46,108 bases of DNA from NCBI GenBank assembly GCA_934086255.1, contig CAKOIB010000001.1:1-46108 (forward strand), read 5' to 3'. Numbering within the stretch: the stretch's first letter is position 1; every line of letters begins with the position of its first letter. Below are positions 4,586 through 41,129 of this stretch, in pieces. Under the pieces are notes generated by a model, which saw only the letters and a program-made list of their open reading frames with translations, made no database searches and was not told where the DNA came from. This DNA is from an uncultured Bacilli bacterium. Its GTDB lineage: Bacteria > Bacillota_I > Bacilli_A > RF39 > UBA660. A program made the translations under genes and the position numbers.

Positions 4586-5647
4586 ATGCTAGATATTAAC
4601 AATCAACTACATATACTATTTATAGTACTAACATGCTTAATAATAACATTAGCAATAACATTCTATATTAAAAAAATAGCTATTCACATCGGAGCAATGG
4701 ATATTCCTAATAAAAGAAAAGTACATACAAAACCAATGCCAAGACTCGGAGGATTAGGCATATTTCTAGGTTTTCTATTTGGATACATGTTGTTCGGAGT
4801 CCAAAGCATCCAAATGAACTCAATACTAATAGGAAGTTTTATTATAGTTTTAACTGGAGTAATAGATGACATAAAACCATTAGATGCAAAAACAAAATTA
4901 ATTGGACAAATAATAGCAGCATGTATAGTAATTTTCTATGGAAACATTCTATTAAACAAGGTAACATTATTTGGATTATACATAAACTTTGGTATCTTTT
5001 CATATCCATTAACAGTCTTATTTATACTAGGATGTATAAATATAATAAATCTAATTGATGGCTTAGACGGACTATCAAGTGGAACATGTGCGATATTTTA
5101 CTTAACAATAGGAATAATAGCCTTTATTAAAGGAACAATGGGAGCACTAAACATAACACTAGCATTTATCATGTTAGGTTCTACCCTAGGATTCTTGTAT
5201 CACAATTTTTATCCAGCAAAGATATTTTCTGGAGATTCTGGTTCCATGTTTCAAGGCTTCATGATCGCAGTAATATCCTTATTAGGATTCAAAACTGCTA
5301 CAATGATTTCCCTATTTGTTCCATTATTAATTCTAGGAATACCAATCTTAGACACATTATTTGCAATTATAAGAAGAAGTTTAAAACATCAACCTATATA
5401 TATGCCAGATAAATGTCATTTGCATCATCAACTATTAAGCTTAGGATTATCGCATAGAAATACAGTATTAGCAATATATGCAATGAATATACTATTTGCC
5501 ATAGCATCAATCATATATATAATTAAAGATAAAAAAATAGGTATCTATGTTTATATAACAATATTAGCACTAATAGCATGGATAATACTTAGAACAGGAA
5601 TAATATCAGATAAAAATAAACATACGGTTAACAAAGAGAAAAAATAA
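4586..5647 (+). CDS. tagO: Glycosyltransferase family 4 undecaprenyl-phosphate HexNAc-1-phosphate transferase (TagO/WecA-like)
   Basis: Polytopic protein with PRLGGLGIF, VIDDIKPL, NLIDGLDGL, GDSGSMFQG and HLHHQL motifs of the MraY/WecA family. Confidence 0.85.
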   Translation: MLDINNQLHILFIVLTCLIITLAITFYIKKIAIHIGAMDIPNKRKVHTKPMPRLGGLGIFLGFLFGYMLFGVQSIQMNSILIGSFIIVLTGVIDDIKPLDAKTKLIGQIIAACIVIFYGNILLNKVTLFGLYINFGIFSYPLTVLFILGCINIINLIDGLDGLSSGTCAIFYLTIGIIAFIKGTMGALNITLAFIMLGSTLGFLYHNFYPAKIFSGDSGSMFQGFMIAVISLLGFKTATMISLFVPLLILGIPILDTLFAIIRRSLKHQPIYMPDKCHLHHQLLSLGLSHRNTVLAIYAMNILFAIASIIYIIKDKKIGIYVYITILALIAWIILRTGIISDKNKHTVNKEKK

Positions 5648-5693: not shown

Positions 5694-5789
5694 AAAAAAG
5701 GAAAAAAATACCAAAAAAAGCAAAAAAAATGAAAAAAAATGAAGAAATTTCAAAAATTGCGCGAAAGATGTTTTAAACTATGTTATATT
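5694..5789 (+). promoter_or_regulatory. Helically phased A-tract array (curved DNA / UP-like) plus candidate extended -10 promoter for the island operon
   Basis: A5-A8 tracts start at 5694, 5702, 5713, 5722, 5732 and 5752, about 10 bp apart. TTGCGC lies at 5757-5762. TGtTATATT at 5781-5789 and TATGTT at 5779-5784 are candidate -10 elements, and the exact promoter geometry is ambiguous. Confidence 0.45.
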
Positions 5790-5805: not shown

Positions 5806-6414
5806 ATGAAAGAATTTTTAAAATGGTTAGGTGTTAATGAAAAAATTGCGAAATTAGCAATATGGTTATTTGTAATTATGGTATTTCTAATAATAACTAA
5901 TGCATTATTGGATAGTATTGGATTGCCGTATTATAAAATAACTGCAGACAACCTAGTTAAAATTAACACAAACAAGGTGGTAGACTACATATCAGCAACA
6001 TTATTGACATTATTAAATTTCTATAGTGTTGTGTTCCTAGTATTTAGGTTAAGTGAATTCAAGAAAATATTGCCTTATTCAATATTGTATTTAATAGGAA
6101 ACATTATAATTAATACATTCTTTGGTTATATATGGGCTCAATTATTTATAATAGTTTTTAACGTTATATTTTTCTATATGTATTCAAACAAAAATATCAA
6201 ATACTTGTTGTATTGCTTACTTTCTATAGGGATAAACGTTGTACTGCAATATGTTTGGTATTTGACAAAAGCACAATTTATTAATTTAAATGAACATACG
6301 GGGACATCATATGCAGTGTTGGGCTTAGATTTCTTTATATTCATGACAATGATAATCGCCACAAAAGAAATATATGTTAAAAAAAGGAGCGAAAAAAATG
6401 AAACCACCAGTTAG
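5806..6414 (+). CDS. Polytopic (~6 TM) membrane protein, unknown function; first gene of agr-like island
   Basis: Long hydrophobic ORF with about six TM segments by eye. ATG 5806 is preferred over the track's TTG 5788, which overlaps the putative -10/SD region, but the start is uncertain. No homology recognised. Confidence 0.55.
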   Translation: MKEFLKWLGVNEKIAKLAIWLFVIMVFLIITNALLDSIGLPYYKITADNLVKINTNKVVDYISATLLTLLNFYSVVFLVFRLSEFKKILPYSILYLIGNIIINTFFGYIWAQLFIIVFNVIFFYMYSNKNIKYLLYCLLSIGINVVLQYVWYLTKAQFINLNEHTGTSYAVLGLDFFIFMTMIIATKEIYVKKRSEKNETTS

Positions 6415-6487
6415 TTTATTTTGGTTAGGACAATTCGACAAAGAAAGTAACTTTGCCAAAAAAATAGCTAAGAAATTAGCTAAATAA
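6398..6487 (+). CDS. Un-called 29-aa cationic amphipathic peptide (MKPPVSLFWLGQFDKESNFAKKIAKKLAK); candidate signalling/toxin precursor
   Basis: ATG 6398 is preceded by AAGGAG (6384-6389) at an 8-nt spacing. The ORF overlaps the upstream gene's end by 17 nt, and its TAA stop at 6485-6487 is followed 6 nt later by a perfect 13-bp hairpin. It is too short for the ORF track. Confidence 0.45.
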   Translation: MKPPVSLFWLGQFDKESNFAKKIAKKLAK

Positions 6488-6493
6488 TTAAAA

Positions 6494-6528
6494 GTAAATA
6501 ATAGTAAATGGGTCCTACTATTATTTAC
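6494..6528 (+). promoter_or_regulatory. Perfect 13-bp inverted repeat (stem-loop/attenuator or operator) between the peptide ORF and the AgrB-like gene
   Basis: gtaaataatagta (6494-6506) / tactattatttac (6516-6528) with 9-nt loop aatgggtcc. An A-run, not a U-tract, follows on the + strand. Confidence 0.6.
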
Positions 6529-6557: not shown

Positions 6558-7004
6558 ATGAAAGAAAAAGAAAAAAAGAATGCTAGAAAAAGAAAAAATG
6601 GAATTTGGTTTAATGACACTGCTACAATAGAAAACTTCTCACAAGTAACAGCGTCCAAGTTAGAAAAAATAATTGAAAATGTTATATTTTATGGAATTAC
6701 AATACCAATGCAGTTATTTCAAACACTAGGAGTCTTCGCAATTGCATGTTTCAATGATGCATTTGCAGAACTATCGTTCTTCTTAATAGGTTTTTTCTTC
6801 ACAAGAAGCTTTTTAGGAGAAACATTTCATTTAAATTCAACAATAACATGTACAACATTTACTTGGACATTATTTTTCTTGATAACATGGTTAATCCCTA
6901 GTATATACATAAGTGTTTTCCTATGTGTACTTATGGGAGTTATGTTATCAATATACATGCATTATATAGTAGTAAAGGAAGATGAGGTATGCCAAAGAGA
7001 TTAG
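6558..7004 (+). CDS. Short (148 aa, ~4 TM) membrane protein with AgrB-like R-x4-G-x3-H-x6-C motif; putative peptide-processing protease
   Basis: SD AAGGGGG about 8 nt before the ATG. FFFTRSFLGETFHLNSTITCTTFT has His91 and Cys98 seven residues apart between TM segments, like the AgrB catalytic H77/C84 and the family pattern R..aGG.H......C. It is shorter than typical AgrB (~190 aa). Confidence 0.45.
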   Translation: MKEKEKKNARKRKNGIWFNDTATIENFSQVTASKLEKIIENVIFYGITIPMQLFQTLGVFAIACFNDAFAELSFFLIGFFFTRSFLGETFHLNSTITCTTFTWTLFFLITWLIPSIYISVFLCVLMGVMLSIYMHYIVVKEDEVCQRD

Positions 7005-7240
7005 GATTAGGAACATTACTTTTAAAAAAATCGCGCCATGAATTAGAAGAATTATGTGACAAAAAAGGGTTAACTGGATTTGAAAAAGAAATTATAATAA
7101 GGATTTATTGGCAACACCAAAATTTAACGTTTATAGCAGATACCATGGATTTTCAAAAATATGGCAAGAAACACAAACACTATTCAGTTAGAAGCATAAA
7201 TACTTTCCATAAACAAGCATTTCTAAAAATAATCAAATAG
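6989..7240 (+). CDS. Small sigma-70 region-4-like / HTH protein (83 aa)
   Basis: Overlaps the upstream gene by 16 nt. SD AAGGAAG 7 nt before the ATG. LTGFEKEIIIRIYWQHQNLTFIADTM...YSVRSINTFHKQAFLKI follows the region-4 helix-turn-helix pattern, with an insertion before the recognition helix. Confidence 0.5.
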   Translation: MPKRLGLGTLLLKKSRHELEELCDKKGLTGFEKEIIIRIYWQHQNLTFIADTMDFQKYGKKHKHYSVRSINTFHKQAFLKIIK

Positions 7241-7303: not shown

Positions 7304-8041
7304 ATGGACTTCATTATTTTAAGTAGTAGTAATCAAGGTCTAAAGGGGTATGAAGGTGTGATCAGCGAATCATTACTTGATTCAAAATTAGAATATCATA
7401 GTTATAAATTCGATGATATTAATAATATGAAAGAGTATGTAGCAAAAAATAAAACAAAAAAAATTTATATAATTGAAAATAATTCACTAATTGATGCAGA
7501 ATTAATCGTTGATTATATAAGAAAGGAAATAAATGATTATCAGTCATATATTATTATCATTAACTTTGATGATAATTTTAAATTAATGAGACATAATGTA
7601 ATGACAACTATATTAGAAAGCAGCAATATATCAACAAATTTAGTAACTACAATTAAAGAGTTGAATAATGTATATTTGCAAGACACTAGTATGTTTTGGT
7701 TCAAACAAAATGGAGTGCTATTTTTGGTGCCGCTTTCTGATATTGTTTGTATAGAAAAATTACAAAATTCAAAATATACTCAAATTATATGCAAAAATAG
7801 AAAATACATAATAAAAGAAACATTAAATCATATAATGACAAAACTTAATAAAAACTTCATAATGGTTCATCGAAGTGTTTTTGTTAACATAAAAGAAATA
7901 AAAACATATGACCATGTTAATGGAATAATAAGTTTCACAAATCATTATCAAACAAGTATGATTTCAAGGGATAAAAAGAAGGAATTATTAAAAGTTCTTA
8001 CCGAACAAGACATAATTTCTACCAAACAAGGTACAAAATAA
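7304..8041 (+). CDS. LytTR-family DNA-binding regulator with degenerate (pseudo-)receiver domain (AgrA-like architecture)
   Basis: SD CAGGAGAGAG. The C-terminal ~100 aa (LVPLSDIVCIEK...FIMVHRSVFVNIKEIKTYD...ISFTN...ISRDKKKEL) fits LytTR. The N-terminal ~125 aa has receiver-like beta-alpha periodicity, but the acidic pocket reads SSS and the phospho-acceptor position reads Glu (IYIIEN). Confidence 0.7.
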   Translation: MDFIILSSSNQGLKGYEGVISESLLDSKLEYHSYKFDDINNMKEYVAKNKTKKIYIIENNSLIDAELIVDYIRKEINDYQSYIIIINFDDNFKLMRHNVMTTILESSNISTNLVTTIKELNNVYLQDTSMFWFKQNGVLFLVPLSDIVCIEKLQNSKYTQIICKNRKYIIKETLNHIMTKLNKNFIMVHRSVFVNIKEIKTYDHVNGIISFTNHYQTSMISRDKKKELLKVLTEQDIISTKQGTK

Positions 8042-9153: not shown

Positions 9154-10386
9154 ATGGAAAATAATGAAATAATGGGTAATGAAATAGTAAGCTTTGAAAA
9201 AAATAAAAAGAAAAGTAAATTACTATTAATATTACTATCGGTAGTAATATTATTGATAGTAGGAGCAGTAATAATCTACTTCTACATCAATAGCAATCCA
9301 TTACTAGCAATAAAGTACAATGCAAATAAACTAACAGAAAATATAACAGAACAAATAGAAAAACAAGAAAAAATAAAAAAAATATCAGGTAATTTAGAAA
9401 TTGACTATAACATTGAATCGACTGATAAAACATTAAAAGAAATGATTGATGCCTTTAATGGTCTATCAGTGATTGCCAACTACAAAATGGATACAGAAAA
9501 TAAAATATTACAAACAGAATTAAAAACAACATATAAAAATGAAAAATTAATTGATGCAAATATCTACATGCAAGACAAAAAAAGTTTTGTACAACTACCT
9601 GGAGTATTTGATAAGTATATAAATGTTGATTTATCTGAAAAATATGATGATATATTTAATACATCAAAAAATACCAAAGAAAGCAAAATAATTGTTAAAA
9701 GCGTTAATAAAGCATTTCAAAAATCTCTAAAAAAAGAATACTTAACTTCAGAAAACAAAACAATTACAATTGATGATAAAAAGACAAAAACAACAAAAAT
9801 ATCAATGGAATTAAATGATAAAAAACTAGCAAAAATATCAAAAGACTTTTTAACATATCTAAAAGATGATCAAGAATTCATTAAAGCAACCAACTCTATA
9901 TCAGAAACTAAAAACACAAAAGAAGAAATAGAAGGCTTAATTGATGAAATATCATTCGATAATCAAAGCGGAACTACTATGACAGTGTCTATCTATTGTA
10001 AGGGAATTTTAAAAGAAGTAGTTAGATATGAAGTAGAATTAAAACAAGATGAAGAAACCTATAATATAGCGGTCACAAAACACAAAGATAAATATGACTT
10101 TAAAATAAAACAAGAAGATGCAATAATATCTAAAGGAACTATTATAAAAGATAAAGAAAAAATCTCAATTGAAGCATCACTTATTGGATTAGGAAATGCT
10201 ACAATAAACATAACAAATAAGGAAGAAAAAAATCCAACAATAAATAAAAAAGAAATAAAAGATTCAGTAAAATATGAAGACTTAACAGAAAAACAAATGC
10301 AAGATATTGCAACAAAGCTATTACAAAATAAAGGATTTGAGAAGTTATCAACAATTTTTGAATCATTAATGCCACAAAGTTATTAA
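9154..10386 (+). CDS. Membrane-anchored (N-terminal TM) extracytoplasmic protein, unknown function
   Basis: SD AGAGGAG. Single TM (LLLILLSVVILLIVGAVIIYFYI), then a 360-aa Lys/Glu/Thr-rich ectodomain. No motif recognised. Confidence 0.6.
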   Translation: MENNEIMGNEIVSFEKNKKKSKLLLILLSVVILLIVGAVIIYFYINSNPLLAIKYNANKLTENITEQIEKQEKIKKISGNLEIDYNIESTDKTLKEMIDAFNGLSVIANYKMDTENKILQTELKTTYKNEKLIDANIYMQDKKSFVQLPGVFDKYINVDLSEKYDDIFNTSKNTKESKIIVKSVNKAFQKSLKKEYLTSENKTITIDDKKTKTTKISMELNDKKLAKISKDFLTYLKDDQEFIKATNSISETKNTKEEIEGLIDEISFDNQSGTTMTVSIYCKGILKEVVRYEVELKQDEETYNIAVTKHKDKYDFKIKQEDAIISKGTIIKDKEKISIEASLIGLGNATINITNKEEKNPTINKKEIKDSVKYEDLTEKQMQDIATKLLQNKGFEKLSTIFESLMPQSY

Positions 10387-15363: not shown

Positions 15364-15402
15364 GATAGATAGTTTTAAAAATCACAAAAATACGAAAATA
15401 AT

Positions 15403-15430
15403 TGACAAAAACGACAAAAAGTGCTATAAT
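15403..15430 (+). promoter_or_regulatory. Near-consensus SigA promoter (TTGACA-16-TGcTATAAT)
   Basis: TTGACA 15403-15408 and TGCTATAAT 15422-15430. The track ORF start at 15402 lies inside this promoter. Confidence 0.7.
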
Positions 15431-15461
15431 AATGCCAATCCAAGTTGAAGGGGGAAATAAT

Positions 15462-17330
15462 ATGGATAATAAGTTTTATTTAGACAAAGAATTAAGAAAC
15501 GCAACAAAGTTTGGATACAAAGGAAAAATATATGAATTAAAAAGTCCAAAAGACATTGGAGAAATACTAATATCTTTAGGAGAAACATCTGCAATTTATA
15601 AGTTTATGGAAGCAAACGATAACAAACAAGTAGTAATTGGCGAATCATACTTTAAAAAAGAAGAAAAAGATTCAAAAATTGAAAACATGAAAGTTTATAA
15701 AAACAATATCAAAAATGCTAAAAAGAATCTAAAACTTAAAATAACAGCAGGAATCTTAACAATGGCAATCGCTGCATCAGCACTTATTGGATGCTCAACT
15801 AGGGAACAAAAAAAAGAGCAACCAGTAACAATGGAAAACTATCAAGAAATGGATTTTGAACAACTACTTGCCCTTTTAAATGAAGGAGTACAAAGAGATT
15901 CATTTGAATTGATGGATGAAGTTCAAGATTATTTTAATAATACTGCAGCGCCAACTATTAAAGTAAAAGCTGATAAAGGTGCACAATTATACTTATTTGC
16001 TGATGAAATAACATCATTATTTACATATGCAAATGCAGATACATATTCAAGAGAAACATTCTATGAAATATTTGGTTCAACATTTGATGATTCTAGAATA
16101 ATTCAAGATTTCGAAAATGCAGGAAGAATATTAAATAATTATTATATAAGAGCAACAAATCCATCTGGTATAGATAAACTATTTCAAAATGAGAAAAATC
16201 AAGAATTATTTGCTAGTTTTGAACAATTAGTATTAAATTACAATAAAAAACCAACAAAAGCAAATAAACAAAAAATTGTTAATAAATTAGATGAAATATA
16301 TTTCAGTGGAAAAATAGATAGTTTAAAAAAGACTTGTCCAGAAGCTGTAGCATTTATAGGAACACATATGACAACAGCACTAGAAGCAAATGGAGTATTA
16401 TCAAAATCATTCGCAGATAAAGTAGTCGAAGCTAATGAAACAGTAGCATGTAACACTATAAAAGAATACGTAAAAGAAGTAGGCGAATATGCACAAGCAA
16501 GAGACTTGGTTACAGCAACAATAGAAAATTATCAAGAAATTAACTTGAGTGATAATCAAGCATTATATTACATTTCAAGTGCAATGGATAACAAAAATAT
16601 TAAAGTAAGTTCAAGAGAAATTAAAAAGATATTAAAAAATAAAAACTTAACAAATAAAGCGGTATTCAAAAAATTAAACATAAAAAATACAAAGTATACT
16701 AAAAAACAAGTTAGTAAAAAAACTGCTATAAAAGAATTCGGTAAAGAAGAAGTTAAAAAAGCAGAACAAGAAGCAGATAAAATGGATCCAATAATAACTA
16801 TTGATAATAAAGATTACTCAATAGATGATGCTAATGAAATTGAAGAAATAACAAGAGAAGCAAAACAATATGGTGTCAACTTTACAAATGATATCTATCA
16901 AGAAATGTATAGAAATAATGGTTCTTTCAATAGTGCTACATATGAAGCTAAATTAACAAATAAAGCAAACAGTTACACAGGTAAATATAAAGAAAAATAT
17001 AAAGTAGCATTATGGCAAGGTTATAGAGAAGCTGTAAGATTAGCAAAAGAACTATACGATAGTGAAAAACAATTTAGAGAAGAAGCAGAAAAAGAAATAA
17101 TTAAAGAGGAAGAAGAAATAGTAACAACTGATAGATACGTACCAAAAGATACAACAGTAGAAAATAATAATAATACAAACAATAATACAAACAACAATAC
17201 AAATAATGATAACAATAATACCAACAATGAAAACTCAACAACTGTAAAAACTGAAACTGTAAGACCGTCTGCTGATAATAATTACACATATGAAGAAGAA
17301 ACAATAGTAGACAGGGTTTATAGTAAATAA
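15462..17330 (+). CDS. Large membrane-anchored orphan protein (about 100 aa cytoplasmic, 1 TM, about 500 aa outside) with Asn/Thr low-complexity tail
   Basis: ATG 15462 follows GAAGGGGGA. TM LKITAGILTMAIAASALIGCS. No domain recognised. C-terminal NNNNTNNNTNNNTNNDNNNTNN tract. Confidence 0.6.
   Translation: MDNKFYLDKELRNATKFGYKGKIYELKSPKDIGEILISLGETSAIYKFMEANDNKQVVIGESYFKKEEKDSKIENMKVYKNNIKNAKKNLKLKITAGILTMAIAASALIGCSTREQKKEQPVTMENYQEMDFEQLLALLNEGVQRDSFELMDEVQDYFNNTAAPTIKVKADKGAQLYLFADEITSLFTYANADTYSRETFYEIFGSTFDDSRIIQDFENAGRILNNYYIRATNPSGIDKLFQNEKNQELFASFEQLVLNYNKKPTKANKQKIVNKLDEIYFSGKIDSLKKTCPEAVAFIGTHMTTALEANGVLSKSFADKVVEANETVACNTIKEYVKEVGEYAQARDLVTATIENYQEINLSDNQALYYISSAMDNKNIKVSSREIKKILKNKNLTNKAVFKKLNIKNTKYTKKQVSKKTAIKEFGKEEVKKAEQEADKMDPIITIDNKDYSIDDANEIEEITREAKQYGVNFTNDIYQEMYRNNGSFNSATYEAKLTNKANSYTGKYKEKYKVALWQGYREAVRLAKELYDSEKQFREEAEKEIIKEEEEIVTTDRYVPKDTTVENNNNTNNNTNNNTNNDNNNTNNENSTTVKTETVRPSADNNYTYEEETIVDRVYSK
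17161..17235 (+). repeat. Imperfect 12-nt in-frame repeat (aataatacaaac-like) encoding the N/T tract
   Basis: gaaaataataataatacaaacaataatacaaacaacaatacaaataatgataacaataatacc, read directly. Confidence 0.7.
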
Positions 17331-17343
17331 GGGGGATTAAATT

Positions 17344-18834
17344 ATGGGATACGAAGTAGATTATAATGAAAATAATAATAACAAACCATTAACACATTAT
17401 ATTAAAAACTTTTTAGTGGGATTTCTATTAATAGTAATATTACTTTTGTTACTAGTATGGATATTCCCAACCAATTCAACAATTCAAAAACTATTAAACA
17501 GTAATAAAGAAGAAACAAATGAGTTTTCAAATTACTTCCAAGAAAACATCAATCTACTAAAAGATGTAGCAGAATCTTACTTTACATTAGAAAGACTTCC
17601 TAAAAACGAAGGAGATAAAGTAAGAATTACACTTGGAGAAATGTTAGAAAAGAAACTTCTAATTAACTTAAGTGATGATAAAGGTAAAATGTGTAGTATT
17701 GATAACACATATGTTGAAGTAACAAAGAAAAAGACAGAATATGAAATGAAGATTTACCTTTCATGTGGTAATGATGAAGACTATGTAATAGTATACTTAG
17801 GATGTTACGATTATTGTTCTAATTACATCTGTGAAAAGAAAACAACAACTAATAAAACATCAAACAAAACTACAACAACTAGTAATAACAAACCAACACC
17901 AACAACAAAGTATTATTGTAAAGTAGTAAAAAATAAATACTATGACAATAAAGGAAATGTTGTGACAAAATCAGCATATGAAAAAGCATGTAAGAACACA
18001 CCACCAACAACAAAACATTATTGTAAAGTAGTAAATAACAAATACTATGACAATAAAGGAAATGTGGTAACAAAAACAGCATATGAAAAAGCATGCAAAA
18101 AATATCAATATTTATATGAAAAGAAAGTTGAAGCAGTATATAGTAATTGGTCAGATTGGTCAAAAGATAAAGAATATGATCCAAACAATAACAATATTGT
18201 CTGGGGAAAACAAGAACTAGTATGGAATGAAAAATATGGTTATGCAGATATAACAAAAAACAAAAAACAATATAGAAATGATACAACAAGACCAATATTT
18301 GGAAAAGAAGAATTAGTTAAGACATCACTAACATCTAAGAGATGGACTTGTAAAAATTATTACTACTATATAAATCAAACAACAGGAAAAACATATAAAG
18401 CAACAGACTGGAAATATCAAGGAAAGGTAACACTTGGATATGTTCCAGAAAATAGTAATACAGTAAAATATGAATATGTTGGATTTGACTTTGATGCCTG
18501 TGCATCTAACTGTACACTAAAACCAATGTATATATTCAAAAAATATACAAGAAGTGCAACAGTATCATCAACATCTAAGAAAACACTTGAAGCAGAATGT
18601 AGCGAATTAGTGGAAAAAGAAGTTCCAATTTATACAACAGTATCAAGAATAATTGGTTATGAACAAAAAACTGTTACAGTAAAAACAACTCAAAGAATAT
18701 ATTATTATCATACAAAAACAAGAACACTTAAATCAAAAGCACAAACTTATAAAGTATGGTCTAACTCATCAAATGATAAAAACTTAATTAAACAAGGATA
18801 CAAGTATACTGGAACAAAACAAGAAATAAAATAA
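17344..18834 (+). CDS. Membrane-anchored Cys-rich orphan protein (496 aa), unknown function
   Basis: SD GGGGGA. ATG lies 13 nt after the upstream stop (operon). TM FLVGFLLIVILLLLLVWIF. Ectodomain has many Cys/Tyr/Lys/Thr residues and a tandem 30-35-aa repeat. Confidence 0.6.
   Translation: MGYEVDYNENNNNKPLTHYIKNFLVGFLLIVILLLLLVWIFPTNSTIQKLLNSNKEETNEFSNYFQENINLLKDVAESYFTLERLPKNEGDKVRITLGEMLEKKLLINLSDDKGKMCSIDNTYVEVTKKKTEYEMKIYLSCGNDEDYVIVYLGCYDYCSNYICEKKTTTNKTSNKTTTTSNNKPTPTTKYYCKVVKNKYYDNKGNVVTKSAYEKACKNTPPTTKHYCKVVNNKYYDNKGNVVTKTAYEKACKKYQYLYEKKVEAVYSNWSDWSKDKEYDPNNNNIVWGKQELVWNEKYGYADITKNKKQYRNDTTRPIFGKEELVKTSLTSKRWTCKNYYYYINQTTGKTYKATDWKYQGKVTLGYVPENSNTVKYEYVGFDFDACASNCTLKPMYIFKKYTRSATVSSTSKKTLEAECSELVEKEVPIYTTVSRIIGYEQKTVTVKTTQRIYYYHTKTRTLKSKAQTYKVWSNSSNDKNLIKQGYKYTGTKQEIK
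17908..18102 (+). repeat. Tandem coding repeat, 2 units (K[YH]YCKVV.NKYYDNKGNVVTK.AYEKACK)
   Basis: Unit 1 at 17908-18012 and unit 2 at 18013-18102, nearly identical at the DNA level (tattgtaaagtagtaaa...tactatgacaataaaggaaatgt...gcatatgaaaaagcatg). Confidence 0.85.
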
Positions 18835-20800: not shown

Positions 20801-20900
20801 AAAAGCAACAAAAATATTGCAATATTCAAAAAAGTTTGATATACTATACAAGAATTAATTATTACTATGACTTAAATGTCATGGCGGAAGGAGATGCAAA

Positions 20901-38333: not shown

Positions 38334-38572
38334 TGCTATAATATAAACATATTTCATAAATCAATGACGAAGAGGAGTAAATTACTAAGTATTAAAGAGA
38401 GGTAGTGTAAGCTGAAAACTACTATACAAAGTAATCGAAGGTAGCTTCTGAGTAATTATTTGAAATTAGTAGAATAATTCGTACTTATGCGTTAAATAAG
38501 AATAAGGTAATATTATATTACAAAATAAGGTGGTACCACGAACATTTCGTCCTTTGGATGAGATGTTTTTTA
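38334..38572 (+). promoter_or_regulatory. Extended -10 promoter (TGcTATAAT 38334-38342) plus T-box riboswitch leader (valine) with terminator
   Basis: AGTA (38376-38379), AGAGA (38396-38400) and T-box core GGTGGTACCACG (38529-38540). Terminator aacatttcgtcc (38541-38552) / ggatgagatgtt (38556-38567) plus T-run. Candidate specifier is GUA at 38441-38443, within GAAGGUAGC. Confidence 0.8.
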
Positions 38573-38594
38573 ATTAAAAAAGGAAGTGTTTAAA

Positions 38595-41129
38595 ATGTTA
38601 GACAAAAAATACAATCATAAACAAGTAGAAGAATCAAAATATGAAACATGGTTAAAAAATGACTACTTTAAAAGCGGAGACTTAACTAAAGAACCATTCT
38701 GTATTGTAATACCTCCACCAAATGTAACAGGAAAATTACACCTTGGACATGCTTGGGATACGACAATACAAGACATTCTAATAAGATATAAAAGAATGCA
38801 AGGATATGACGCTTTATGGCTACCAGGAATGGATCATGCTGGAATAGCAACTCAAGCCAAAGTAGATAAAAAACTAAAAGAACAAGGAATAAATCCAAGA
38901 GAAATGGATAGGGAAGAATGGCTAAAAATTGCATGGGAATGGAAAAAAGAATACGCAGAAAACATTCATGCGCAATGGGCAAAACTAGGACTATCCCTAG
39001 ATTATTCTAAAGAAAGATTTACTCTTGATGAAGGACTATCAAATGCCGTTAAAAAAGTATTCGTAGATTTATATAACAAAGGATTAATCTATCGAGGAGA
39101 AAGAATAATAAACTGGGATCCTGAAGCATTAACAGCACTATCAAATGAAGAAGTAATCTATAAAGAAACAAAAGGAGCCTTCTACCATATAAAATACTAC
39201 ATCGAAGACGAAGATAACTATCTAGAAATAGCAACAACAAGACCAGAAACACTATTCGGAGACACCGCCGTAGCGGTAAACCCAAAAGATGAAAGATATA
39301 AAAAGTACATTGGTAAAAATGTAATATTACCAATTGTAAATAAAAAAATCCCCGTAGTAGCGGACCAACATGCTGACCCAGAATTCGGAACAGGAGTCGT
39401 AAAAATAACTCCAGCTCATGACCCTAACGACTTCGCAGTTGGAGAACGTCATAATCTAGAAAGAATCGTAGTCATAAATCCAAATGGAACAATGAACAAA
39501 AATGCCCTACAATATGAAGGACTAGATAGATTCGAATGCAGAAAGCAATTAGCAAAAGACTTAAAAGAACAAAATCTTTTAATCTCAGTCGAAGAAATAA
39601 CTCATAATGTAGGATACTCAGAAAGAACAGACGTAATGGTTGAACCTTACCTATCAAAGCAATGGTTTGTAAAAATGAGACCACTCGCAGATAGAGTATT
39701 AGAAAACCAACAAAATAAACAAACAAAAGTAAACTTCGTACCAGAAAGATACGAAAAAATAATGAATCACTGGATGGAAATAACTTACGATTGGTGCATA
39801 TCAAGACAACTATGGTGGGGTCATAAAATACCAGCATGGTACAAAGACGATGAAATATATGTTGGAATAAATCCACCACAAGAATCAGGTTGGACTCAAG
39901 ATGAAGACGTACTAGATACATGGTTTTCAAGCGCTCTATGGCCTTTTTCAACACTAGGATGGCCAGAAGACACAAAAGATCTAAATAGATACTATCCAAA
40001 CAATGTCCTAGTAACAGGATATGACATCATTCCATTCTGGGTAAATAGAATGACATTCCAAGGACTAGAATTCACAGGAAAAAGACCATTCAAAGACTGT
40101 CTAATTCACGGTCTAATAAGAGACAAACAAGGAAGAAAAATGTCCAAATCATTAGGAAACGGTGTAGATCCAATGGACGTTATAGAAAAATATGGAGCAG
40201 ATTCCTTAAGATACTTCCTAACAACAAACTCATCACCAGGAATGGATTTAAGATACGATGAAGAAAAAGTAGCATCGACATGGAACTTCATAAACAAACT
40301 ATGGAATGCATCAAGATTTGTTCTAATGAACATTGAAAACTTCAAAAAAGAAGACTATACATTAGAAAACTTAACAGAAATAGATAAATGGATATTGACA
40401 AAAACTAATAAAACAATAAAAGGAAAAACAGAAAATATGGATAAATATGAGTTCAATAACGTAGGTAACACTCTATATAAATACATATGGGAAGACTTCT
40501 GTGACAACTATATAGAACTATCTAAAAACAACTTAGAAAAAAACACAACAAAAACAGTCCTACTCGAAGTCCTAACAAACATAATCAAAATGCTACATCC
40601 ATTTATGCCATACGTAACCGAAGAAATCTATCAAATGCTACCAGTAAAAGATCAAGAAAGCATTGTAATAAGCAAATATCCTACATACAATAAAGAACAA
40701 ATATATGAAACCGAAGAAAAATTAATAGACAAGCTAATCGAAGATATAACAAGCATAAGAAATCTAAAAGTAGTAAACGAAATTACAAAAGATGCTAAAA
40801 TCAAAATAAATAGTAACTATGAAGAACTATATAAATTTGCACTAAAAATAAAAGACGATCAAATAACAAAAGAACAACCAACAGATACAAAAGAATACAA
40901 CTATAAAAGTGCAAACATCGAAATAACTTTCTATCAAAAAGGAAAAGAAATTAACAAAGAATTGTTAATATCAGAAATAGAAAAACTAAAACAATCAATA
41001 GAAAAAAGAACAAAGTTACTATCAAATGAAAATTATGTAAACAAAGCACCACAAAACGTTGTAGAACTAGATAGACAAAAACTAAAAGAAGAACAAGAAA
41101 AACTACTAAGTTTAGAAAAACAATTATAA
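38595..41129 (+). CDS. valS: Valyl-tRNA synthetase
   Basis: [15 protein letters not shown] (HIGH), [19 protein letters not shown] and a C-terminal coiled coil. ATG 38595 is preferred over GTG 38586. Confidence 0.95.

Follow-up and report, generated by a model that had tools for sequence, protein, structure and literature searches.

We analyzed a 46,108-bp stretch of DNA from an uncultured Bacilli bacterium (contig CAKOIB010000001.1 of GenBank assembly GCA_934086255.1, forward strand), hereafter called the window, and propose that a gene for a 29-amino-acid (aa) peptide within it probably encodes an AgrD-like precursor without a leader, from which the adjacent AgrB-type enzyme would make a (thio)lactone peptide in a strain-variable version of the agr system. 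The gene was compared with its counterparts in a first set of 37 loci and in 33 further loci that a metagenome scan found to carry the peptide open reading frame (ORF), giving about 70 related loci in total. The peptide gene and its parts are placed as follows:

6398–6487, + strand: peptide gene (putative AgrD-like precursor), 29 aa, MKPPVSLFWLGQFDKESNFAKKIAKKLAK; start codon ATG 6398–6400, stop codon TAA 6485–6487
6384–6389, + strand: Shine–Dalgarno (SD) sequence AAGGAG of the peptide gene, lying where the upstream gene encodes KKR(S/G)E
6413–6427, + strand: predicted 5-residue lactone ring Ser6-Leu-Phe-Trp-Leu10; the [C/S]-x3-[hydrophobic] block is fixed, its cyclization predicted
6428–6484, + strand: conserved basic, amphipathic follower GQFDKESNFAKKIAKKLAK, the segment predicted to be recognized by AgrB and to leave on cleavage

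The proposal starts from the pattern of conservation among the peptides. The 55 distinct sequences align without gaps from the ring through the tail and share the pattern M-x(1-9)-[C/S]-x-[L/F/Y/W]-W-[W/F/I/L/V]-[G/P]-x-F-x-x-E-x-x-[F/L/I]-A-K-K-[I/L]-A-K-K-.... The nucleophile position is occupied by Ser in 30 peptides and by Cys in 25, with nothing else found, and the two interchange through single-base changes (AGT/TGT or AGC/TGC). In 55/55 peptides this residue lies exactly five residues ahead of the conserved [G/P]-x-F-x-x-E junction. Ring position 4 is an invariant Trp, a hydrophobic residue (W, F, I, L or V) occupies position 5, and the family contains 40 different five-residue rings against a conserved tail. 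Between 2 and 10 residues including Met (median 5) stand ahead of the nucleophile, the follower is 19–27 aa long with a family mean net charge of +5.3 and one invariant Glu, and the whole precursor spans 27–38 aa. An earlier note on this DNA had listed several options for the peptide; among them, a lactone-type autoinducer fits best, with Ser6 of the window allele standing where other members have Cys, five residues before the junction. The note's view of the C-terminal tail as a cationic amphipathic helix also held: the hydrophobic moment of the last 12 residues of the window peptide is 0.74, a value attained by 7 of 2,000 shuffles. The amphipathicity is limited to the C-terminal 12–15 residues, and the N-terminal part consists of a Pro/Gly-rich tail and an aromatic block.

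The peptide ORF is a genuine gene, and its own frame alone is under purifying selection. The elements that the earlier note had described, namely AAGGAG, ATG 6398, a 29-codon frame, a 17-nt overlap with the upstream ORF (which ends at 6414) and a 13-bp hairpin, are all present in the window. The SD lies 8 nt ahead of the ATG; the mechanically called ORF reaches back to an upstream ATG at 6374 (37 aa), which has no SD. This 29% GC DNA holds 91 ORFs of at least 20 aa in 8 kb, and judged from the window alone the peptide ORF is within chance expectation; it rises above chance because of the comparison with related loci. All 37 loci of the first set carry the ORF with a start codon (ATG in 33, GTG in three and TTG in one), and 36 have an SD-like motif 7–12 nt upstream of it. 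Its frame relative to the upstream gene varies, being +0 in seven loci (with a stop between the two), +1 in 15 and +2 in 15. We tested for selection on the gap-free 22-codon core of the small ORF in the 37 loci, using the ratio of nonsynonymous to synonymous variation (pN/pS). The peptide frame contained no stops (0/37) and gave a pN/pS of 0.39, whereas the other two frames contained stops in 20/37 and 24/37 loci and gave ratios of 0.95 and 1.24. Variation in the peptide frame was greatest at third codon positions (0.45 vs. 0.30 and 0.19).

We judge the gene real because its frame is constrained, because it has its own SD and start codon and because the 33 additional metagenome loci carry it; conservation of the frame in orthologous loci was the test that the earlier note had set for its claim of a genuine gene. 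Five metagenome contigs without the motif (L066, L071, L074, L077 and L078) are shortened or rearranged and do not count as counterexamples. The note had also called the gene un-annotated, which is right in that no source gives the peptide a name but wrong in that gene callers do predict it and a homolog appears at NCBI under the label "unknown" or "hypothetical protein."

The earlier note had compared the locus to the layout of a precursor gene, a hairpin and a processing gene, and the next gene downstream is indeed of the AgrB family:

6558–7004, + strand: gene for a short AgrB-family membrane peptidase, 148 aa; motif residues Arg83, Gly87, His91 (6828–6830) and Cys98 (6849–6851)

The 148-aa protein matches the Pfam family PF04647 with 32.7 bits (cutoff 23; E 5.8e-8). 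We found 310 close homologs; the AgrB-like proteins of the family are 146–166 aa long, PF04647 is precomputed for all 120 homologs among the matches listed, and some homologs bear the NCBI name "accessory gene regulator B family protein." Judged by its match to the model, the protein is a truncated AgrB, without the full-length architecture (~190 aa, whole model). The motif FFFtR.fLGetfHlnST..CT is common to 34 locus sequences, with His91 and Cys98 invariant and seven residues apart. AgrB of Staphylococcus aureus requires R70, G75, H77 and C84, the last of these being its active-site cysteine (PMC10196373). A BLAST comparison with an S. aureus AgrB sequence puts the R, G, H and C in register, weakly (E 0.14) and with the R-to-H spacing one residue longer in the AgrB-like protein; we take this register as a lead, not proof. 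A sequence search of the AgrB-like protein against PDB chains gave no meaningful match. In 34/37 loci of the first set, the AgrB-like gene starts 10–104 nt past the peptide stop, it follows the peptide gene in most metagenome loci as well, and the two are adjacent in nearly all complete loci. In one clade (L056 and L058), the AgrB-like gene and the gene for an 83-aa protein precede the membrane-protein and peptide genes, and hpf comes directly after the peptide gene and its hairpin.

In the scheme that we infer, here and below, for the cleavage site, cyclization, export, receptor identity, signaling role and hairpin function, the basic amphipathic C-terminal segment (GQF..E..FAKKIAKKLAK) would take the peptide to the membrane and to the short AgrB-family cysteine peptidase, the follower thus assuming the role of membrane targeting and recognition. 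The enzyme would then cut after residue 10 by means of His91 and Cys98 and join the new carboxyl group to the side chain of Ser6, or of Cys in other alleles. The predicted product, (f)MKPPV-[SLFWL], has a short exocyclic tail and a lactone (or thiolactone) ring of five residues; the calculated mass of the window's lactone is 1198.657 Da with Met, 1226.652 Da when formylated and 1067.617 Da without Met. Because the ring lies almost at the N terminus, no second, leader-removing protease would be needed.

Further evidence comes from the gene upstream of the peptide gene and from the way in which the two vary together:

5806–6414, + strand: orphan membrane-protein gene whose product has six long helices and, counted from ATG 5806, 202 aa (start in the ORF list, TTG 5788)
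5880–6460, no strand assigned: hypervariable cassette, made up of the body of the six-helix gene and that part of the peptide gene which encodes the N terminus and the ring

Outside ~5880–6460, contigs from the species of the window match it with ~100% identity; inside, the identity drops to 45–75%. The left boundary of this cassette falls within the membrane-protein gene, beyond its conserved N terminus, and the right boundary within the peptide gene, just past the ring and junction codons. From about 6461 on, the follower is 100% conserved among the alleles of the species, which shows no variation in the peptide tail, the hairpin, the AgrB-like gene or the 83-aa gene. Four same-species alleles encode the rings SLFWL (window), SWFWL, SILWW and CILWW; their membrane proteins differ by 45–52%, and their AgrB-like protein is 100% identical. 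Across close species, by comparison, the alleles with MGHS[I/V/F]LWW peptides have membrane proteins that are 17–26% distant and AgrB-like proteins that differ by up to 11%. The cassette thus behaves as a unit, outliving or crossing species boundaries. The polymorphism resembles the specificity groups of agr; in S. aureus, the hypervariable region runs across agrB-D-C (PMC12312760).

The six-helix protein has no Pfam or NCBIfam family, one sub-threshold holin match being all that these searches returned, and every one of its 82 homologs lies in this lineage. Its AlphaFold2 model (pLDDT 81) consists of six long helices. A HMMER profile of the protein run against 1.84 billion representatives recovered its own family only and no kinase fusions, and a Foldseek search of the model against the PDB gave nothing below E = 1 and no fold match. 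Homology to the sensor domains of AgrC, or to anything else, was considered and is not backed by HMMER, Foldseek, Pfam or NCBIfam. We regard the six-helix protein as most likely the cognate receptor, or another partner, of the peptide. In the mechanism that we propose, the variable part of the peptide and the six-helix protein would be inherited as one cassette defining strain-specific "pherotypes," and the allele-matched membrane protein would sense or otherwise handle the cyclic peptide. In metagenome contig L074 (about 1660–2170), the membrane-protein gene is broken after ~134 residues by an ORF resembling a DNA methyltransferase.

Downstream of the AgrB-like gene and upstream of the operon, the locus has the following elements of possible regulatory function:

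6989–7240, + strand: gene whose 83-aa product has a helix-turn-helix like that of sigma-70 region 4; the AgrB-like gene overlaps it with its end
7304–8041, + strand: gene for a 245-aa LytTR-domain protein (PF04397, E 6e-16), an optional neighbor
5757–5789, + strand: promoter-proximal elements TTGCGC (5757–5762), 21 nt, TATATT (5784–5789)

The 83-aa gene is present wherever the AgrB-like gene is. Pfam's Sigma70_r4 matches weakly in 4/25 members of its family, and Foldseek matches of the AlphaFold2 model (pLDDT 87) are weak yet consistent (sigma region 4, KorA and UPF0122); a sequence search of the family profile against PDB chains gave no meaningful match. The LytTR protein gave no Response_reg match in the Pfam scan, and so has no recognizable receiver domain. 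By eye, its 138-residue N-terminal domain reads IILSSSNQ and IYIIENNS where DD and D would be expected, and it may be a pseudo-receiver. The earlier note had considered LytTR control of the peptide, which is unproven: the LytTR gene was not detected in 15/35 reference loci; in about nine of these, from species that carry the peptide module and clearly lack the gene, hpf or csp comes directly after orf83. The gene is missing from roughly a quarter of the species. A scan confined, within the genome, to the locus and 18 ORFs of the window detected no histidine kinase domain. With the LytTR gene optional, the 83-aa gene always linked and no kinase found, the core module, as read from the gene content of the loci, is the membrane protein, the peptide, the AgrB-like protein and the 83-aa protein.

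At 57–68 nt upstream of the membrane-protein start, 25/37 loci have two direct copies of TTGCGY (TTGCGY-N5-TTGCGY); the clade of the window has a single TTGCGC. As some species with this repeat have no LytTR gene, the 83-aa sigma-region-4-like protein is a candidate for binding it. The repeat is mostly placed 21 nt upstream of a TATAAT-like hexamer, with 16 nt to TATAGT in several loci, and a role of this hexamer as a −10 element is doubtful because it lies only ~2 nt ahead of the SD. A palindrome, GGAAAAAWTTTCC, is found upstream of the direct repeat in 14/37 loci (e.g., L007, L014, L016, L022, L027 and L036). The window has the palindrome element at 5700–5712 (GGAAAAAAATACC), and in its clade an A-rich insertion parts the palindrome from TTGCGC. 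In the proposed mechanism, the output would probably run through the 83-aa DNA-binding protein, in some species perhaps also through the LytTR protein, and the regulator would act on the TTGCGY repeats of the operon promoter and provide feedback, apparently with no histidine kinase involved in signaling.

AgrD consists of an N-terminal amphipathic leader of 24–25 residues, a 7–9-residue autoinducing peptide with a 5-residue (thio)lactone ring and, at the C terminus, a charged tail that AgrB removes (PMC12312760). The module resembles the agr loci (agrBDCA of Staphylococcus and agrBD of clostridia) in pairing a small ribosomal precursor with an AgrB-family peptidase that has a His/Cys motif; in the Cys/Ser at the head of a hydrophobic block of five residues, after which comes a charged, conserved follower; in a signal part that is hypervariable within species between conserved flanks, as in specificity groups; and, in many species, in a nearby LytTR-domain gene. 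An adjacent kinase is likewise absent from clostridial loci with agrBD only (e.g., agr1 of Clostridioides difficile). Ser in place of Cys is known from Staphylococcus pseudintermedius and from GBAP, a pheromone that activates gelatinase biosynthesis (PMC12312760). Unlike in these serine-lactone autoinducers (the autoinducing peptide of S. pseudintermedius and GBAP/FsrD of Enterococcus faecalis), Ser and Cys alternate here freely between alleles of one species as well as between species, and the predicted ring has five residues as opposed to the nine of GBAP.

The module departs from agr in several respects, and some of the departures weigh against the proposed AgrD-like precursor. The AgrD models of Pfam (PF05931) and NCBIfam (TIGR04223) match none of the 55 peptides, even at E up to 10, and the peptide family is outside the AgrD family as currently modeled. 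The canonical leader is absent, with the 2–10 residues ahead of the nucleophile in its place, and the precursor is shorter than the 40–50 aa of AgrD. The follower is basic (+5) and 19–27 aa long, whereas the AgrD tail is acidic and 14–15 aa long, and its residues D33 and E34 are essential for cleavage in S. aureus (PMC10196373). The PF04647 match spans only model positions 17–118 of 185, roughly the first two thirds, and the peptide gene lies 5′ of the AgrB-like gene, not 3′ (order D–B, not B–D). Two contigs, the reference contig L032 and the short metagenome contig L070, carry the membrane protein and the peptide but no AgrB-like gene; as L032 has no AgrB-like ORF in the 1.1 kb upstream, the peptide may persist in at least one genome with no AgrB-like gene beside it. 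The distances of ring and membrane protein, with AgrB distance removed, were not significantly associated across all species (partial Mantel test, 188/2,000 permutations). Finally, the organisms are uncultured and the proposal is drawn from their sequences. Further differences concern the partners: the AgrB-like protein is here constant between alleles and the variable partner is the orphan six-helix protein, which has no kinase domain, where a complete agrBDCA locus has an AgrC-type histidine kinase. An AgrA-type response regulator combines a receiver with a LytTR domain; the optional neighbor has the LytTR domain and no receiver match.

The main rival to the AgrD-like reading holds that the peptide, cyclized or linear, is an antimicrobial or toxin and the six-helix protein its immunity protein, with the diversity of the cassette arising from strain warfare, as in bacteriocin–immunity loci. 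In its favor, a multi-pass membrane protein co-varies with a small peptide gene within species; the tail is cationic and amphipathic, 6/55 peptides matching weakly the spider antimicrobial family Cupiennin; and neither a kinase nor a recognizable receptor domain was found. However, the cationic amphipathic part is the conserved one, and the variable part is a 5-residue aromatic Cys/Ser block with the size and chemistry of autoinducing peptides (PMC12312760). The module lacks an ABC transporter as well as any motif for export or a leader, while its linked DNA-binding protein and conserved promoter repeat are expected of a regulatory circuit. A bacteriocin–immunity pair would thus explain the diversity of the cassettes but not the regulator, the promoter repeats or the signal-like size, and we consider it improbable.

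It is far less probable still that the 29-mer acts unprocessed, either as a linear membrane-active peptide resembling phenol-soluble modulins (PSMs) and delta-toxin, as the earlier note had allowed, or as a small subunit of the upstream membrane protein, the AgrB-like neighbor being irrelevant. Such a role would agree with the strong hydrophobic moment, with the lack of a leader, which PSMs share, and with the two contigs lacking the AgrB-like gene. In PSMs and delta-toxin, however, the amphipathic helix extends across essentially the whole unprocessed peptide, whereas here it is confined to the C-terminal part, the conserved part that an AgrB-type enzyme would remove. A simple membrane-active helix also leaves unexplained the exclusive use of Cys or Ser at a fixed spacing in all 55 peptides, the Trp and the G/P-x-F motif, and it does not account for the AgrB-like gene being linked to the peptide gene in nearly all complete loci.

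The last alternative arose from the membrane-protein homologs, which fall into two length classes of 197–202 and 218–237 aa, the longer making up about half of the database entries. The long tails, e.g., GSENSKKKATLPKN or ..MVGTIQQRKQ.., overlap the DNA of the peptide gene and represent the membrane-protein gene reading on through it in either of the two non-peptide frames; they look conserved because the underlying peptide frame is conserved. That the ORF is itself a frameshifted C-terminal tail of the membrane protein (a pseudogene, a sequencing error or a programmed frameshift, as the A7 run at 6392–6398 might suggest) or a product of chance was rejected as scarcely credible, as the tails use two frames of which neither is that of the peptide, the seven same-frame loci are split by a stop, the stops and near-neutral pN/pS are found in the other frames only and the gene has its own SD and start codon throughout.

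Under the AgrD-like reading, the nearest precedent for signaling without a kinase is found in the LytTR Regulatory Systems (HdrRM and BrsRM of Streptococcus mutans; PMC6193735), which likewise combine a membrane protein with a small transcription regulator and have direct repeats just 5′ of the promoter core, suggesting positive autoregulation (PMC6193735). They differ in that the always-linked regulator here is the sigma-region-4-like 83-aa protein, with LytTR optional, and in that the module adds the peptide and the AgrB-like enzyme. The general searches gave no homology between the six-helix protein and the inhibitors of these systems, to which no dedicated comparison was devoted. We suggest only tentatively, and as the less probable outcome, that the whole constitutes an undescribed architecture of uncultured, genome-reduced gut Bacilli, in which a leaderless AgrD-like (thio)lactone would be sensed by the hypervariable six-helix protein; this protein would in turn control the free-standing 83-aa protein, much as an anti-sigma factor or the inhibitor of a LytTR Regulatory System does, with many mutually exclusive pherotypes swapped as cassettes among strains and close species and the GGGCCC hairpin described below serving as a dedicated regulatory element.

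The related loci come from metagenome-assembled genomes of uncultured "Bacilli / Tenericutes / Mycoplasma sp. CAG:611" from the human gut, the rumen and other animals, and the identical AgrB-like protein is present on 23 human-gut metagenome contigs. We take the "Mycoplasma sp. CAG:611"-type lineage to be the order RF39 of GTDB. A search of one literature library found no paper linking agr to RF39, Tenericutes or Mollicutes-like gut lineages, and RF39 is not mentioned in the main text, as distinct from the supplementary data, of a survey of RiPPs (peptides made by ribosomes and modified after translation) in the human microbiome (PMC11953309). If the reading is true, AgrD/AgrB chemistry would reach a lineage of gut and rumen Bacilli without cultured members or described cell–cell signaling, and an AgrB-type enzyme would be able to process a leaderless precursor with a basic follower. 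The rules for mining autoinducing peptides would widen, as current AgrD models miss all 55 members, and the family would offer at least 40 natural ring variants with co-inherited membrane proteins for the study of peptide–receptor specificity and of strain-level interference in the gut, as well as a kinase-free route from a cyclic peptide to transcription. The predicted products have 7–15 residues and are easily synthesized, so the hypothesis can be tested directly although the organisms are uncultured.

Between the peptide gene and the AgrB-like gene, the window contains a further conserved element:

6494–6528, + strand: conserved hairpin, 13-bp A/T-rich stem, loop AATGGGTCC

The arms gtaaataatagta (6494–6506) and tactattatttac (6516–6528) pair perfectly over 13 bp around a 9-nt loop, with a predicted folding energy of ~−12 kcal/mol. 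Perfect 13-bp stems occur only twice in the 46 kb, and GGG[C/T]CC only once, in the loop of this hairpin. Of the first set, 34/37 loci have a hairpin with an 8–14-bp stem and a GGGCC-type loop 3′ of the peptide gene, as do 31/33 of the further ones. It persists there even where hpf and not the AgrB-like gene comes next, and therefore belongs to the 3′ end of the peptide cistron. Pairing was counted with the sequences anchored on the loop. Among 27 distinct hairpins, the first nine pairs were 98% paired, in comparison with 34–51% when the 3′ arm was slid, although the arms had been picked by our own hairpin finder and complete (100%) pairing is partly by construction. In a subset of 22 sequences, all nine pairs showed changes on both sides, G–U pairs included. 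RNAalifold on a MAFFT alignment of the raw hairpins returned no structure, as the variable loops misaligned the arms, and no Rfam family matches the hairpin.

The earlier note had explained the hairpin as a partial terminator. Like the attenuator hairpins of RiPP and bacteriocin operons, it is a stable stem-loop between a precursor gene and a processing gene. It differs from intrinsic terminators in its A/T-rich stem, with one G–C pair in 13, in the lack of a U-tract and in its conserved GGGCCC loop. Downstream of the stem the window reads AAAAATAATCC, the terminator scan makes no call, and no T-run follows the hairpin in any of ~65 loci, whereas T-runs do follow the remaining terminator-like hairpins of the window. 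A canonical intrinsic terminator is thus not supported. The hairpin would most likely act at the RNA level, plausibly through differential stability, processing or attenuation.

Alternatively, the element could be an operator in double-stranded DNA, a palindrome centered on GGGCCC and bound by a dimeric regulator. The palindrome does extend nearly to the center in many species (e.g., AAATAGATAAA-AGGGCCCT-TTATCTATTT), the arms have a loose consensus, AATAGATAA, and the module encodes a helix-turn-helix protein. The arm sequences nevertheless change while staying complementary, as the nine pairs with two-sided changes demonstrate, and the loop motif, GGGCCC in the family, is GGGTCC in the window, which is self-complementary solely as RNA (through G–U) and not as DNA. 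The element is moreover intra-operonic, at the 3′ end of the peptide cistron, and travels with that cistron. We therefore regard an operator as unlikely and retain the RNA-level reading. The A-rich 5′ flank and the 6-nt palindrome of the loop are reminiscent of kissing-loop dimerization sites.

The genes of the locus all lie on the + strand, in the order M23 peptidase, MreB, GT4 glycosyltransferase (4586–5647), six-helix protein, peptide, AgrB-like protein, 83-aa ORF, LytTR protein, cold-shock protein and HPF. The rest of the window holds housekeeping genes, among them those for UvrB, MurA, several aminoacyl-tRNA synthetases, ClpC and EF-G, and a T-box leader. These surroundings make the locus chromosomal and not the island of which the earlier note had spoken; the module occupies a syntenic site between the GT4 glycosyltransferase gene and csp/hpf. 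In one contig (L020, 711–2233 and 2911–4433), the whole four-gene module is present twice in tandem with identical protein sequences, which could be a real duplication or an assembly artifact.

Elsewhere in the window, no Pfam family matches, at the thresholds used, the large ORFs at 9154–10386 (410 aa), 15402–17330 (642 aa) and 17344–18834 (496 aa); the first of these lies just 3′ of hpf and has an N-terminal membrane anchor. Rfam identifies an L31-Firmicutes ribosomal-protein leader at 20865–20893, barely at threshold, and places the T-box leader (128 bits) at 38355–38557, ahead of an 847-aa ORF at 38586–41129.

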